Shown here: piece by piece, positions 6,021 through 38,027 of the stretch
Layout: each line of letters begins with the position of its first letter
Numbering within the stretch: position 1 is the stretch's first letter
Program-made: the position numbers and the translations under genes
Notes under the pieces: model-generated
The model's database searches: none
Told to the model about the DNA's origin: nothing
The model's input: only the letters and a program-made list of their open reading frames with translations
Assembly (NCBI GenBank): GCA_047602405.1
Contig: JASGHJ010000001.1
Location: forward strand, 1,856,001 to 1,920,000
DNA: 64,000 nt
Direction of reading: 5' to 3'
DNA from: Anaeromyxobacteraceae bacterium
Lineage (GTDB): Bacteria > Myxococcota > Myxococcia > Myxococcales > Anaeromyxobacteraceae

Positions 6021-7414
6021 GCGCGCGGCCCCAGGGCGCCGCGCTCCAGCGCGAGGGCGGCCGCGAGGACCGCGAGCCCGCCCTGCGCACCGTCGAGCAG
6101 GCGCTGCGCGACGCGTGCGGCATCACGCTCTCCGAGGGGCTCCGCGCCACGCTCACCGACGCGCTCGCCCGCGCCGCGCGCGACGCCGGCCAGCCCGAGG
6201 CGGCGTTCCTCGCGCGCCTCCACGGGCGGGACCCCGCCGCGCTCACCACGCTCGTCGAGGCGTCGGTGATCGGCGAGACCTACTTCTTCCGCCACCCCGA
6301 GCAGTTCGAGGCGCTGCGCGGCGAGCTGTTGCTCGGCGCGCCGCTCGACCGGCCGCTCCAGGTCTGGTCGGCGGGCTGCGCCACCGGCGAGGAGGCGTAC
6401 TCGCTCGCGATGGCGCTGCTCGACGCGGGCCGGACGGGCGCGGGCGACCGGATCCTCGCCACCGACGTCTCCGCCCGTGCACTCGCGGTCGCGCGGGAGG
6501 GCGTCTACGGCGAGTGGTCGATGCGGCGGGTGAGCCCCGCCGCCCGGGCGCGTCACTTCGAGCAGCGCGGCCCGCTCGTCGCGGTGCGGGCCGAGGCGCG
6601 CGCGCCCGTGGCGTTCGACCGGCACAACCTCGTGCGCGACCCGGCCCCCGCGAGCGGGCTCGACCTCGTCGTCTGCCGGAACGTCCTGATCTACTTCACC
6701 GCCGAGGCGGCCCTCGAGGTCGCGAAGAAGCTCGCCGGCGCGCTCCGTCCCGGCGGGCTCCTCGTGCTCGGCCCGGTCGAGTCCTCGGTGGCGAACGCGC
6801 TCGAGCTCGAGCGGCTCGAGGTCGCGGGGGCGATGGTGTTCCGGCGGCCGGAGCCCGGCCGGCCTTCAGGCCGGCCGAAGGCAGGTCCCCGGGTCGCGCG
6901 GTCGTCCCTCGTCTCCGGGCCGCTGCGCGATCCTACGCTCGGGACGAACGGGTTGGCTTCGCCGCAGGAACCGCGGGTCGTAGCGCCCGCGCCCGTGCCC
7001 GCGCCCACCCCCACCCCCGTCGCCGACTTCGCCGCCGCCCGGGACGCCGCCCGGAGGGGCGAGCTGGCGCTCGCCGAGACGCTCGCCCGGGAGGTCGCCG
7101 TCCGGGAGCTCTCGCCCGAGTCCTACCTCCTCCTCTCCATGGCGGCGGACGCCCGGGGGGACGTGGCGGGGGCGGTCGAGGCGGTTCGCCGCGCCCTGTA
7201 TTTGGACCCGGGGCTCGCGATGGGGCACGCTGCGCTCGTGCCACTCTATGGACAGCTCGGCCTCGCCGACGACGCCGCCCGCGCGCGGCGCAACGCGCTC
7301 GAGGCCATCCGCGAGCTCGACGACGCCGCGCAGCTGCGCGGGGTCGAGCCCGTCACCGCGGGCGCGCTCCGCAGCGCGCTCGGCGGGCCCCCGCCGTCCG
7401 TCAACAAGGTGTGA
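6017..7414 (+). CDS. cheR: CheR methyltransferase with C-terminal TPR (WspC-like)
   Basis: IGETYFFRH, WSAGCATGEEAYSLA, CRNVLIYF, TPR segment RRALYLDP; GTG overlaps the upstream TGA. Confidence 0.92.
   Translation: MSARPQGAALQREGGREDREPALRTVEQALRDACGITLSEGLRATLTDALARAARDAGQPEAAFLARLHGRDPAALTTLVEASVIGETYFFRHPEQFEALRGELLLGAPLDRPLQVWSAGCATGEEAYSLAMALLDAGRTGAGDRILATDVSARALAVAREGVYGEWSMRRVSPAARARHFEQRGPLVAVRAEARAPVAFDRHNLVRDPAPASGLDLVVCRNVLIYFTAEAALEVAKKLAGALRPGGLLVLGPVESSVANALELERLEVAGAMVFRRPEPGRPSGRPKAGPRVARSSLVSGPLRDPTLGTNGLASPQEPRVVAPAPVPAPTPTPVADFAAARDAARRGELALAETLAREVAVRELSPESYLLLSMAADARGDVAGAVEAVRRALYLDPGLAMGHAALVPLYGQLGLADDAARARRNALEAIRELDDAAQLRGVEPVTAGALRSALGGPPPSVNKV
6903..6951 (+). repeat. 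palindromic REP-like element (family A) inside the cheR linker
   Basis: CGTCCC TCGTCTCC GGGCCGC TGC GCGATCC TACGCTC GGGACG AACGG matches the repeat flanking the GIY-YIG gene. Confidence 0.85.
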
Positions 7415-29095: not shown

Positions 29096-30148
29096 ATGAA
29101 CACCCGTTTTCTCACCGTCGCCGCGCTCCTCGCGCTCGCCGCCTGCAAGTCGCAGGCGGGCGCCCCCGCCGGGGCGCAGCCCGCGCAGGTCGACCCCAAG
29201 GCCGCCGCCGCCAAGTTCGACGGCGTGACGATCACCAACGCGGAGGTCGACGAGCACGCGAAGGACGGCCTCAAGAAGATGGATTTCGACTACCTGAAGG
29301 GGCGCCACGAGCTCCGCCGGCAGTCGCTCGACGACCTCATCATCCGCAAGATCCTCGCGAAGAAGATCGGCAAGGCCGAGGTCACCGACCAGGATCTGCA
29401 GGAGTTCCTCGGCAAGGAGGTCGCGAAGCGGACCCCGGAGCCGACGGACGTCGAGATCCAGGCCGTCTACGACCAGGCGAAGGCTTCCGGCCGTCAGGTC
29501 CCGCCGCTCGACGCGGCGGTGAAGGCGCAGATCGCGCAGGGCCTCAAGGGCCGCCGCATGCAGTCCGAGGCCGACGCGTACATGGCCGACCTGAAGAAGG
29601 ACGCCAAGGTCGAGGTCCTCATCCCGGCGTTCACGATGCCGGTCAAGGTCGACGGCGGCATGGAGAAGGGCTCGAAGAGCGCGAAGGTCACCATCGTCGA
29701 GTTCTCCGACTTCGAGTGCCCGTACTGCGCCCAGGCCGAGCCGACCGTGAAGCAGATCCTCGGCGCCTACGGCGACAAGGTCCGCCTCGTCTACATGGAC
29801 TTCCCGCTCGAGTTCCACAAGCGCGCGCCGAAGGCCTCCGAGGCCGCGCACTGCGCCGGCGACCAGTCGAAGTACTGGGAGATGCACGAGCGCCTCTTCT
29901 CGTCGCGCAAGATCGACATCGCCGATCTCAAGGCGCACGCGAAGGACCTCGGCCTCGACACGGCGAAGTTCGACAAGTGCCTCGACTCCGGCGAGAAGGC
30001 CAAGGTCGTCGACGCGTTCAAGAAGCAGGGCGAGGAGAACGGCGTCTCGTCGACCCCGGCCTTCTTCATCAACGGCCGCCCGGTCGCCGGCGCGCTCCCG
30101 TTCGAGGAGTTCAAGAAGATCATCGACGAGGAGCTGGCGAAGTCCTAG
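29096..30148 (+). CDS. DsbA-like thioredoxin-fold lipoprotein
   Basis: Lipobox LAAC; EFSDFECPYC, GVSSTP cis-Pro. Confidence 0.9.
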   Translation: MNTRFLTVAALLALAACKSQAGAPAGAQPAQVDPKAAAAKFDGVTITNAEVDEHAKDGLKKMDFDYLKGRHELRRQSLDDLIIRKILAKKIGKAEVTDQDLQEFLGKEVAKRTPEPTDVEIQAVYDQAKASGRQVPPLDAAVKAQIAQGLKGRRMQSEADAYMADLKKDAKVEVLIPAFTMPVKVDGGMEKGSKSAKVTIVEFSDFECPYCAQAEPTVKQILGAYGDKVRLVYMDFPLEFHKRAPKASEAAHCAGDQSKYWEMHERLFSSRKIDIADLKAHAKDLGLDTAKFDKCLDSGEKAKVVDAFKKQGEENGVSSTPAFFINGRPVAGALPFEEFKKIIDEELAKS

Positions 30149-30154
30149 CTCCGC

Positions 30155-30204
30155 CGTGCCTCGTCTCCGGCGCGCATTCGCGCGCCTACGCTCGGCACGA
30201 ACGG
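30155..30204 (+). repeat. palindromic REP-like element (family A)
   Basis: CGTGCC TCGTCTCC GGCGCGC ATTC GCGCGCC TACGCTC GGCACG AACGG. Confidence 0.85.
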
Positions 30205-30295
30205 TTGGGGTAGGGATTGCGCGGACGGCGGCAGGGCCCTAGAACAGGCCCGGCCGCCGTTCGTTTTTTCCGAGGCCGGTGAGAGGTCGATCGCG

Positions 30296-35936: not shown

Positions 35937-36530
35937 GTGCTGCTCTTCCAGAAGCGCTTCCACGCCGGGCTCGTCGACGGCTCGGTCGAGCTGACCTTCC
36001 GGCGCTGGGACCGCCCGCACGTGAAGCCGGGGGGGCGCTACCGCGTGCACCCGATCGGCGTCGTGGAGGTGGACGCGCTCGAGGAGGTGCCCTTCGGCGC
36101 GGTCGGCGAGGCCGACGCGCGGCGCGCGGGCTTCACGGGGCTCGCCGAGCTCCGCGCGTTCCTCGCCGAGCTCGGCCCGCTGCGCGCCACGACCCGCGTC
36201 TGGAAGGTCGCCCTCCACCACGCCGGCCAGGACGACCGGGTGCCGCTCGCGCTCGAGGCCGAGCTCACCGACGCGGACGTCGACGCGATCGCTGCCCGGC
36301 TCGCGAAGCTCGACGGCCGGGGCGCCTGGACCCGCGAGACCCTCGCCCTGATCCGCAAGCACCCGCAGACCGCCGCCTCGCGCCTCGCCGCGAAGCTCGG
36401 CAGGGAGACGCTCCCGTTCAAGGTGGACGTCCGCAAGCTCAAGCGGCTCGGCCTCACCATGAGCTTCGAGGTCGGCTACGAGCTCTCGCCTCGCGGGAAG
36501 GCGTTCCTCGCGCGGCGGAAGCGGTGGTGA
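35937..36530 (+). CDS. ASCH/PUA-like domain protein with C-terminal winged-HTH-like segment
   Basis: GAGGAGG RBS; G.V.LTFRRW.RP.VK.G, DARRAGF, FKVDVRKLKRLGLT.S.EVGYELSPRG. Confidence 0.7.
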   Translation: MLLFQKRFHAGLVDGSVELTFRRWDRPHVKPGGRYRVHPIGVVEVDALEEVPFGAVGEADARRAGFTGLAELRAFLAELGPLRATTRVWKVALHHAGQDDRVPLALEAELTDADVDAIAARLAKLDGRGAWTRETLALIRKHPQTAASRLAAKLGRETLPFKVDVRKLKRLGLTMSFEVGYELSPRGKAFLARRKRW

Positions 36531-36531
36531 G

Positions 36532-36580
36532 CGCCCCTCGTCTCCGGGCCGCTGCGCGGCCCTACGCTCGGGGCGAACGG
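36532..36580 (+). repeat. palindromic REP-like element (family A)
   Basis: CGCCCC TCGTCTCC GGGCCGC TGC GCGGCCC TACGCTC GGGGCG AACGG. Confidence 0.9.
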
Positions 36581-36609
36581 TCGAGAGGAACGCGGAACAC
36601 CGGCGGGCG

Positions 36610-36707
36610 GGACACGGGGCACACGGTCGGCAGGAGCACGGGGCACACGGGTGGCAGGAACACGGGGCACACGGGTGGGCAGGAACACGGGGCACACGGG
36701 GGGGCAG
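36610..36707. repeat. minisatellite, 4 x 24-25 bp
   Basis: Unit GA(A/G)CACGGGGCACACGG(G/T)nGGCAG repeated four times. Confidence 0.9.
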
Positions 36708-36727
36708 GAGCGGACTCGGTCTTTCCC

Positions 36728-36778
36728 CCGTTCGTCCCGAGCGTAGCGGCCACGCAGTGGCCGCGGAGACGAGGGACG
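36728..36778 (-). repeat. palindromic REP-like element (family A), inverted
   Basis: Reverse strand reads CGTCCC TCGTCTCC GCGGCCAC TGC GTGGCCGC TACGCTC GGGACG AACGG. Confidence 0.9.
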
Positions 36779-36787
36779 ACCCCTGGA

Positions 36788-37096
36788 TCACCGCTGGGTT
36801 CTCCGCTCCCACGCGTTTTTCCCGCGCGCGGCCCGCTTCAGCTCCGCCCAGTCGCCGCGGATGAGCGCCTCCTTCTTCCGGCGACTCCACGGCTTCACCC
36901 GCTGCTCGGTCTCCTTGGCCTCATCGCGGGTGGGGCAGTCGCACGCCCAGACGAGCTCGACCGGGCGACGGCGAGAGGTGAAGCCCGGGAAGATGCCCTC
37001 CTGGTGTTCCCAGACGCGCTTCTCGAGCTCGTCGGTGTGGCCCACGTAGAACGACCCATCGGCGCAGCGGAGCATGTACGCGTAGAAGGCAGGCAT
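36788..37096 (-). CDS. stand-alone GIY-YIG nuclease (UPF0213/YhbQ-like)
   Basis: FYAYMLRCADGSFYVGHT, KRVWEH, TRDEAKETEQRVKPWSRRKKEALI. Confidence 0.92.
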   Translation of the reverse strand: MPAFYAYMLRCADGSFYVGHTDELEKRVWEHQEGIFPGFTSRRRPVELVWACDCPTRDEAKETEQRVKPWSRRKKEALIRGDWAELKRAARGKNAWERRTQR

Positions 37097-37128
37097 GGTG
37101 CCCGAGCGCTGCAAGAGTGGATCCGGGG

Positions 37129-37590
37129 CGCCCCTCGTCTCCGCGGCCGCGGTGCGGCCGCTACGCTCGGGGCGAGCGGGAGCTGTCGAGAAGGGCGAGG
37201 ATCACCGGGGCGCCCCTCGTCTCCGCGGCCGCGGTGCGGCCGCTACGCTCGGGGCGAGCGGGAGCGGTTGAGAAGGGCCAGGACCACCGGGACGCCCCTC
37301 GTCTCCGCGGCCGCGGTGCGGCCGCTACGCTCGGGGCGAGCGGGGAGCTGTCGAGAAGCGCCAGGATCACCGGAGCGCCCCTCGTCTCCGCGGCCTCGGT
37401 GCGGCCGCTACGCTCGGGGCGAGCGGGAGCTGTCGAGAAGGGCCAGGATCAACGGGGCGCCCCTCGTCTCCGCGGCCGCGGTGCGGCCGCTACGCTCGGG
37501 GCGAGCGGGGAGCTGTCGAGAAGGGCAGGATCACCGGAGCGCCCCTCGTCTCCGCGGCCGCGGTGCGGCCGCTACGCTCGGGGCTGACGG
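37129..37590 (+). repeat. tandem array of six family A elements, period 82-83 bp
   Basis: CGCCCCTCGTCTCCGCGGCCGCGGTGCGGCCGCTACGCTCGGGGCGAGCGGG at 37129, 37211, 37293, 37376, 37458, 37540 (copy 4 has one substitution, copy 6 a diverged tail), with related 30-31 bp linkers. Confidence 0.95.
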
Positions 37591-37663
37591 TGGGGGAGAC
37601 CGGCTCTGTTGTGGACGTTGGTCCGTGCGGCAGACGCCTGGTCCGCGCGGCGGCCCTCCGATC

Positions 37664-38027
37664 TCAATATTGCGGCACCCGGCCCGCTCCCAGCTCGGAC
37701 AGCCAGGCGGCGAGGGCGCGGCGGTCGTCCTTCGTGCCGGGGAACGGCGGCATGGGGCGCTTGCCCTCCTTGCCGATGGTCTGGAGCTTCCCGACCACGC
37801 CGTAGGCGTGCAGCGGGTCCCAGCCGGCGACGCGCTTCTGGAGGGGGATGTCCGTGTGGCACGAGTGGCAGCGCTCCCGGTAGACCTTCCGGCCGGCGGC
37901 GACGAGCGCGGGCGTCACGACGATGGGCCTCGGGGGGCGGGTCGAGGAGCCCGGCCTGGTCGACTCCGACCGCCGCCACCACGACCGCCACCGCACCTGC
38001 GAGGACCCACCGCACCCAGGAGCTCAT
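37664..38027 (-). CDS. monoheme c-type cytochrome, apparent +1 frameshift at ~37930
   Basis: N-terminal TM; G..VY...CHSCH; MPPF Met ligand; span is 3n+1. Confidence 0.75.

Follow-up and report, generated by a model that had tools for sequence, protein, structure and literature searches.

The DNA analysed here is a 64,000-nucleotide stretch, referred to below as the window, of the genome of an Anaeromyxobacteraceae bacterium (6.16 Mb in two contigs, 74% G+C). Starting 6 nt after the TAG stop codon (30146–30148) of a DsbA-like gene, and upstream of ispG, lies a 50-base repeat copy made up of a 6-bp outer stem, an 8-nt left loop (L1), a 7-bp inner hairpin, a 7-nt right loop (R1), the closing arm of the outer stem and a 5-nt tail. 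The pattern TCGTCTCC-N10-30-TACGCTC is found ten times in the window, against 0.00 expected from 100 shuffles, at 6909, 30161, 36538 and 36739 (reverse strand) and at six positions within an 82-nt tandem array (37123–37584). The array and the copy at 36728 lie on either side of a small gene encoding a GIY-YIG nuclease, 6.6 kb from the copy at 30155 (Table 1).

Table 1. Repeat copies and the GIY-YIG gene of the window
Feature	Position	Strand	Remarks
Repeat copy, decayed inner stem	6903–6951	+	Inner stem GGGCCGC/GCGATCC, two non-Watson–Crick positions
Repeat copy under study	30155–30204	+	Outer stem CGTGCC/GGCACG; L1 TCGTCTCC; inner hairpin GGCGCGC-attc-GCGCGCC; R1 TACGCTC; tail AACGG
Repeat copy	36532–36580	+	Begins directly 3' of the TGA that ends the preceding + strand gene
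Repeat copy, right-hand bracket	36728–36778	−	About 10 nt 3' of the GIY-YIG gene stop, in gene sense
Small GIY-YIG nuclease gene, type 1	36788–37096	−	102 aa from ATG at 37096; open frame to 37114
Tandem array of six copies, left-hand bracket	37123–37590	+	82-nt unit (repeat plus 30-nt conserved linker), 5.6 units; first copy antisense to the GIY-YIG gene, about 30 nt before its start

A preliminary description of this DNA had proposed a repeat with a two-stem fold around conserved loops, and this is borne out by the ten copies in the window and the roughly 284 in the genome. Every outer- and inner-stem variant that it listed is present in the alignment of the window copies. Its statement that the tail is lost in the last array copy proved mistaken: read in register, this copy has GGGGCT followed by GACGG, a recurrent variant, and the tail is kept. 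The six copies of the array carry the hairpin GCGGCCGC-ggt-GCGGCCGC, and the corresponding site of a sister genome holds a single copy with a different inner hairpin, GGGCCGC-ttc-GCGGCCC. The sister-genome counterpart of the 36532–36580 copy has an identical inner stem, with loop TTC versus TGC, and the site corresponding to the 36728–36778 copy carries a tandem duplicate. A reading of the 82-nt array as a CRISPR was rejected, the whole unit including the linker repeating at 94% identity with no unique spacers.

Two further features of the window adjoin these copies. Between the facing copies at 36532 and 36728, positions 36590–36709 are occupied by 4.9 copies of a 24-nt tandem unit, ACGGGGCACACGGGTGGGCAGGAAC, with 86% matches, and the counterpart in a relative is a different short repeat, GGGCTGACGG-like. 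The spacers beside the GIY-YIG gene also gather other short repeats. Positions 30226–30269, between the 30155 copy and ispG, form a GC-rich hairpin (cggcggcagggccc tagaaca ggcccggccgccg) with a T run after it. Most of the 16 orthologous spacers read retain a comparable structure whose loop is of the CTAGA type; its role may be that of a terminator or of a leader for ispG.

Exact L1 and R1 blocks gave 105 regular-expression matches genome-wide, including two overlapping duplicates. A relaxed search (L1 as TCGNCTNC, R1 as NNCGCTC, G–T and A–C treated alike in scoring the stems, score of at least 8) returned 284 copies, compared with 5 in a reversed-genome control. Among these, L1 is TCGTCTCC in 126, TCGACTCC in 98, TCGACTTC in 33 and another sequence in 27, and R1 is TACGCTC in 221, TGCGCTC in 21, CACGCTC in 19 and another sequence in 23. 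The loops had been described as invariant; this holds within the window, and across the genome they are near-constant only, with the consensus TCG[T/A]CT[C/T]C and [TA/TG/CA]CGCTC. The tail is AACGG in 96 copies, AGCGG in 72 and GACGG in 29. In the 187 copies with hairpins of 17 or 19 nt the apical loop is most often TGC (81), TTC (60) or TCC (16), which on the purine-rich strand gives G-N-A (GCA 81, GAA 60, GGA 16). When the search was repeated on structure with the loop letters free, 95 hits were obtained, of which 79 contain TCGNCTNC and 78 NNCGCTC; the recurrence of the loop letters in an unconstrained search indicates that their conservation is no artefact of the search. A first, looser structure-only scan was dropped as uninformative (2331 hits against 2095 in the control).

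The inner stem pairs almost without exception and is freely variable in sequence: its first six pairs are Watson–Crick in 1650 of 1698 cells (97%), and the first pair is G–C in 278 of the 284 copies. Compensatory covariation, which the preliminary description had noted in the window copies, was confirmed in a larger alignment of 111 copies from several genomes (109 distinct rows), although this alignment was fitted to the covariance model and so leans towards it. Of its stem cells 96.1% are paired, compared with 74.2 ± 0.7% after shuffling, a level that none of 500 shuffles reached. Both sides have changed in 12 of the 14 pairs, double-change cells number 306 against 102.8 ± 10.3, and the covariation score is 0.513, against 0.150 for shuffled alignments and 0.054–0.090 when the partner is slid by one to three columns. 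All but one of the 150 own-genome candidates scored match the covariance model. The purine-rich strand is predicted to be the more stable in 235 of the 284 copies, by 0.8 kcal/mol on average.

The repeat also occurs in a short form. The outer stem of this form, which takes in the tail and the complement of the tail, extends to as many as 11 bp (CCGYTCGYCCT/AGGRCGARCGG) and closes an 11-nt loop, TCGACAGGCTC, without an inner hairpin. The two forms have in common the outer stem, the loop ends TCGAC...GCTC and the tail RRCGG. The own genome contains 23 short forms against 4 in the control, about 19 net, for example at C1:46390–46425 and C2:3577940–3577975. Short forms were also recorded at loci L073, L075, L081 and L082. 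In some species they are arrayed downstream of the GIY-YIG gene, and in-frame read-through gives peptide repeats such as RPSTSSGRT or FDRLSTSG. Nested copies were seen near C1:650474 and C2:3689066 and in the pre-ispG spacer of a 95% identical genome (L018), the exact position of the inner hairpin being taken by a second copy or by an oppositely oriented short-form-like sequence. These nested copies suggest that the loop of the repeat is an insertion point.

The repeat is unevenly distributed, both among genomes and among equivalent sites. Among the matches listed per genome (at most 129), the covariance model finds the repeat in 22 of 24 genomes of the same genus, and in 3 of 16 sampled from other genera of the order (G039, G027 and G032). 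Public records that contain the exact pattern bear titles naming Anaeromyxobacter. Further matches to it in Acidimicrobiaceae, Micromonospora, Solirubrobacteraceae and Protaetiibacter were set aside because they lack the stems and appear chance-like; one in Chloroflexia is ambiguous. Sixteen spacers between the DsbA-like gene and ispG were read, with 14 further loci on the other strand left out. The own genome and the 95% identical one carry the element in this spacer, with the inner part replaced in the latter by the nested short-form-like sequence; one further genome has a degenerate copy elsewhere in the spacer, and in 13 of the 16 the element is absent. A wider comparison was made at 52 sites of a 90–95% identical Anaeromyxobacter MAG, 27 of which could be mapped by both flanks. 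About 10 of these 27 are empty in the own genome (gap of at most 44 nt), 4 have an identical inner hairpin, 6 differ, and the remainder have longer gaps, beyond the resolution of the pattern. Differences between matching sites include paired changes in both stems, as in GGCCGGC/GCCGGCC against GGCCTGC/GCAGGCC together with CGTCCC/GGGACG against CGCCCC/GGGGCT; another is a swap to the other subfamily. Since equivalent sites in so close a relative may hold a copy or lack one, the repeat is DNA that either moves or has been gained and lost recently. The compensatory pattern need not come from slow selection on individual copies: with whole stems and subfamilies swapped and about 10 of 27 sites empty, turnover or replacement of copies contributes. 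The joints of filled and empty sites are too diverged to define a target-site duplication, and there is no conserved flank in the 20 nt upstream or past the tail.

The placement of the copies relative to genes was assessed from the GC periodicity of flanks 200–350 nt away, taken as a measure of coding state; a crude GC3 gene caller, which covered 71–82% of the genome, was applied to gene ends in the window only. By this measure 68 copies lie between convergent genes, 67 are antisense and 50 sense between tandem genes, and 14 lie between divergent genes; at least one flank is not clearly coding for the other 85 of the 284. These counts imply that both orientations are used and that promoter-only (divergent) spacers are avoided. 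Where a sense gene lies upstream (120 copies), the outer stem starts 0–19 nt past the stop codon in 75, at a variable offset, and either an insertion preference or selection could produce this proximity. Distances on the tail side are broad, 88 of 133 falling at 20–159 nt. No replication-strand bias was evident in 100-kb bins compared with GC skew.

Proximity to stop codons on one side and broad distances on the other would be expected of a structured RNA motif at mRNA 3' ends, read on the given strand, that binds protein or stabilises or terminates the transcript, and the excess of G–T (129) over A–C (29) among the non-canonical pairs of the outer stem points the same way. However, 101 of the 129 G–T pairs occur at one position of one subfamily, and so are inherited, and the inner stem has G–T and A–C in equal measure (15 and 16 in the 284 copies). 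The tandem-gene copies are antisense somewhat more often than sense, copies are gained and lost between near-identical genomes and form tandem arrays, and the associated Ssn nuclease family, discussed below, acts on ssDNA and leaves RNA unbound (PMC11893778). The Rfam search that had been proposed gave no match at the gathering score over the 64 kb of the window, and within 36400–37700, which holds eight of the ten copies, a search up to E = 10 gave one irrelevant hit. We consider an RNA motif very improbable. Of the two media, ssDNA or RNA, left open by the preliminary description, it is ssDNA that these observations favour.

The GIY-YIG protein consists of a single domain (Pfam PF01541, E = 3.5e-15, residues 10–81 of 108); its Atlas record starts at residue 7. 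Homologues at least 47% identical were classed as type 1, a paralogue being 33–42% identical. Among 18 type-1 proteins (93–102 aligned residues), Y7, R27 and E64 are found in all 18 and Y17 in 17, so that the catalytic-type Tyr of GIY (Y7), Tyr of YIG (Y17) and Glu (E64) are retained. The nearest solved relatives are the UPF0213 proteins 1zg2 (profile E = 5.8e-22) and 1ywl (3.4e-18). The type-1 gene occurs in 13 of 31 genomes of the genus, the paralogue being more widespread.

Read along the gene, the unit in the window is antisense copy–gene–sense copy, and both tails point away from the gene. This arrangement recurs. The covariance model finds a copy within about 150 nt of the gene at 10 of 14 type-1 loci and at none of 16 paralogue loci, and the other four type-1 loci have short-form copies alongside with the same polarity. 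The nearest long-form copy upstream is antisense at all 10 loci that have one, and that downstream is sense at 10 of 12. Brackets on both sides with uniform polarity are found at L070, L071, L078, L079, L097, L160, L165 and, weakly, L163, and at L073 by the short form. Since 12 of the Anaeromyxobacter loci represent one syntenic site beside a moxR-like gene, they are not independent; the window locus lies elsewhere, and in one relative the window-type site and the moxR site each carry a bracketed gene. Counted by genomic context, the bracket occurs in at least five: the window locus, the moxR-adjacent locus, G039, G055 (weakly) and the Vulcanimicrobiota genome G047. The moxR site of the own genome (C1:878200–878900) is without the gene and carries one solo long-form copy together with runs of a 13–16-nt repeat, CGATTCACGA....

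Beyond the genus, the bracket recurs in two other genera of the order and in a Vulcanimicrobiota MAG. G039, from another genus of the order, has a bracketed gene and 65 model matches. G055, chosen beforehand for the presence of the gene, then gave 30 matches and a weaker bracket. Among the 16 other-genus genomes, G032 has the gene and 2 matches and G026 a weak homologue of the gene. The Vulcanimicrobiota MAG G047 was reached through the repeat pattern alone, and has a 49% identical gene, a bracket of the same kind and 10 matches. Within the genus, 12 genomes with the gene have a median of about 66 matches and 12 without it a median of 9, among the matches listed (one-sided Mann–Whitney p = 0.007, kinship ignored). 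At least 9 matches are found in 11 of the 12 with the gene and 7 of the 12 without (Fisher p = 0.08, kinship again ignored). Five genomes (G006, G012, G015, G020 and G023), two of them complete single contigs, have 37–67 matches and no type-1 gene at E ≤ 1e-28.

The association could also arise if the repeat were selfish palindromic DNA of the MITE-like kind with no protein of its own, its stems kept complementary by template switching inside the hairpin or by conversion between copies, and the GIY-YIG gene were simply a hot spot for insertion. Inner stems that are 97% Watson–Crick yet hypervariable, the wholesale replacement of copies at matching sites, the nested copies and arrays, and the gathering of further short repeats in the spacers beside the gene would all suit such an element. 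Against it, different genera and two other phyla have conserved the loops, the tail and the layout of the outer stem, which calls for a reader that is specific for sequence, and an insertion hot spot sits poorly with the consistent polarity of the bracket and with the absence of copies from the paralogue loci. We regard this explanation as unlikely.

The placement of the copies also recalls the REP elements, which typically lie after gene ends and are rare in divergent spacers. REP/BIME elements, REPINs and RAYT transposases are reportedly the subject of work by Nunvar in 2010, Bertels and Rainey in 2011 and Ton-Hoang in 2012. The likeness extends to short GC-rich extragenic palindromes that number in the hundreds, occur in both orientations after gene ends and sometimes form arrays, to a cognate gene between inverted copies, and to GTAG beside the hairpin. 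In a classical REP system the element here would be moved by a RAYT of the HUH Y1 class that reads GTAG 5' of the inner hairpin on the opposite strand (GAGCGTAG...), and GTAG does abut the inner stem on that strand wherever R1 is TACGCTC (221 of 284 copies), although GAGCGTA and the G that completes GTAG belong to a longer conserved block. The own genome contains 11 HUH/Y1 open frames (L047–L057), several of them near-identical and multi-copy and none tied to the repeat, that score below the cut-off for NCBIfam NF047646 (25.9–67.7 bits, cut-off 80). None of the 11 is flanked by copies; one has a single copy 246 nt away, where about 0.3 would be expected by chance, and the others are 4.5–28 kb from the nearest. 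Two of the candidate proteins were compared with the repeat across genomes, and neither tracks it: both are missing from G013 and G023 despite 71 and 67 matches, and G017, G018 and G024 carry protein A with 0–1 matches. Moreover, the gene that is flanked encodes a GIY-YIG nuclease rather than an HUH Y1 enzyme, the RAYT-like genes being unflanked, and the loop blocks are not complementary, so that a copy is not a REP doublet. Despite the resemblance in gene-end placement and avoidance of divergent spacers, a classical REP element moved by a RAYT is therefore, in our judgement, very unlikely.

To our knowledge, the Ssn nucleases, of which four have been assayed, are the sole described site-specific nucleases that cut only ssDNA. 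The bracketed gene of the window has the layout reported for them by Chenal et al. (Nat Commun 2025; PMC11893778). In that study, SsnA of Neisseria meningitidis is a 94-aa single-domain GIY-YIG protein whose gene is flanked by copies of a hairpin repeat in the order NTS-ssnA-NTS. Binding of SsnA to the NTS requires ssDNA, the cut falls a few nucleotides upstream, RNA is not bound, and the mutations Y6A, Y17A and E64A abolish cutting; the identity of the NTS loop is dispensable and extensions of it are tolerated (PMC11893778). The likeness to the present locus lies in a protein of about 100 aa that consists of one GIY-YIG domain, in the closely matching positions of Tyr, Tyr and Glu, in a gene set between inverted copies of a hairpin repeat that occurs in tens to hundreds, and in the orientation of the repeat by non-palindromic conserved bases beside the stem. 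The G-N-A apical loop of the purine-rich strand compares with the NTS loops GAAA or GCAG, and the strand opposite the purine-rich one has CGTC before the hairpin, as in the NTS; either strand may be the active one.

There are also differences from the published account. The repeat described here has two stems, the hypervariable inner hairpin splitting the conserved loop into blocks of 8 and 7 nt, and it has a conserved 3' tail, RRCGG. The published SRM pattern (HGTCWY N0-2 YYVSBRH N0-5 WNVSBRG N0-2 RNCYNB) gives 72 matches in the genome and fits 28 of the 284 copies, and the SRM is not enriched in Anaeromyxobacter in the published table: Supplementary data 4 of PMC11893778 gives enrichments of 0.44–0.78 for four Anaeromyxobacter genomes, of which one is flagged for a tblastn homologue, two for cd10448 by psiblast and none for a CDD score above 100. 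[quoted passage not shown] No link to natural transformation is known for the present system. The UPF0213 proteins (BH0048, PDB 1zg2; EF2693, PDB 1ywl) are likewise single-domain GIY-YIG proteins of equal size; judged by the titles given by their depositors, they come from structural genomics and have neither a function assigned to them nor a known repeat partner. Full-text searches pairing GIY-YIG or Anaeromyxobacter with repeats found no description of the repeat.

Because the gene is bracketed by inverted copies in the layout of NTS-ssnA-NTS, gene and repeat form a candidate Ssn-like pair, and we think it probable, by analogy, that a repeat copy such as that at 30155–30204 is the cognate ssDNA recognition site of the small GIY-YIG nuclease encoded at 36788–37096. 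That the fold is a protein recognition site, as proposed in the preliminary description, fits all the findings, with the bracketed nuclease now the candidate for that protein; its binding to the repeat is predicted from the association of gene and repeat. By comparison with the Ssn enzymes, the protein would bind the repeat only as folded single-stranded DNA and nick nearby, reading the outer stem, the bases of the split loop and the tail. The inner hairpin would be an insert tolerated in the apical loop of the target, which would allow it to vary freely while still folding back and would account for the short form as well; copies of the short form, which lacks that hairpin, lie beside the gene as well, and this makes such a reading of the inner stem a likely one. 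The nuclease may spread the repeats in the transposon-like unit of repeat, gene and repeat or, once domesticated, cut ssDNA that carries them. The proximity of 75 of 120 copies to a stop codon is left unexplained by this model.

A bolder proposal, which we offer tentatively and think rather less probable than recognition itself, is that the GIY-YIG nuclease copies or moves the hairpins, as a REP/RAYT-like 'domesticated transposon' with a GIY-YIG enzyme in place of an HUH enzyme. Its target would then be modular, a constant frame of outer stem, split loop and tail around an exchangeable inner hairpin, into which any hairpin might be loaded with recognition kept. Overall, we conclude from the parallels in gene, residues and layout that the system is likely a variant of the published Ssn kind with a new target architecture.

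The pair offers a target of different architecture, in which a conserved loop is split around a free inner hairpin and a natural short form is at hand for comparison, in a lineage where the published SRM search found nothing (PMC11893778). It is well suited to asking which parts of the target the enzyme reads, and whether inserts in the loop are tolerated naturally, as they are in vitro. Near-identical genomes that have recently gained or lost copies could be used to ask whether such nucleases spread their own repeats. For annotation, about 280 intergenic hairpins per genome would be explained, together with spurious peptide repeats in open frames.
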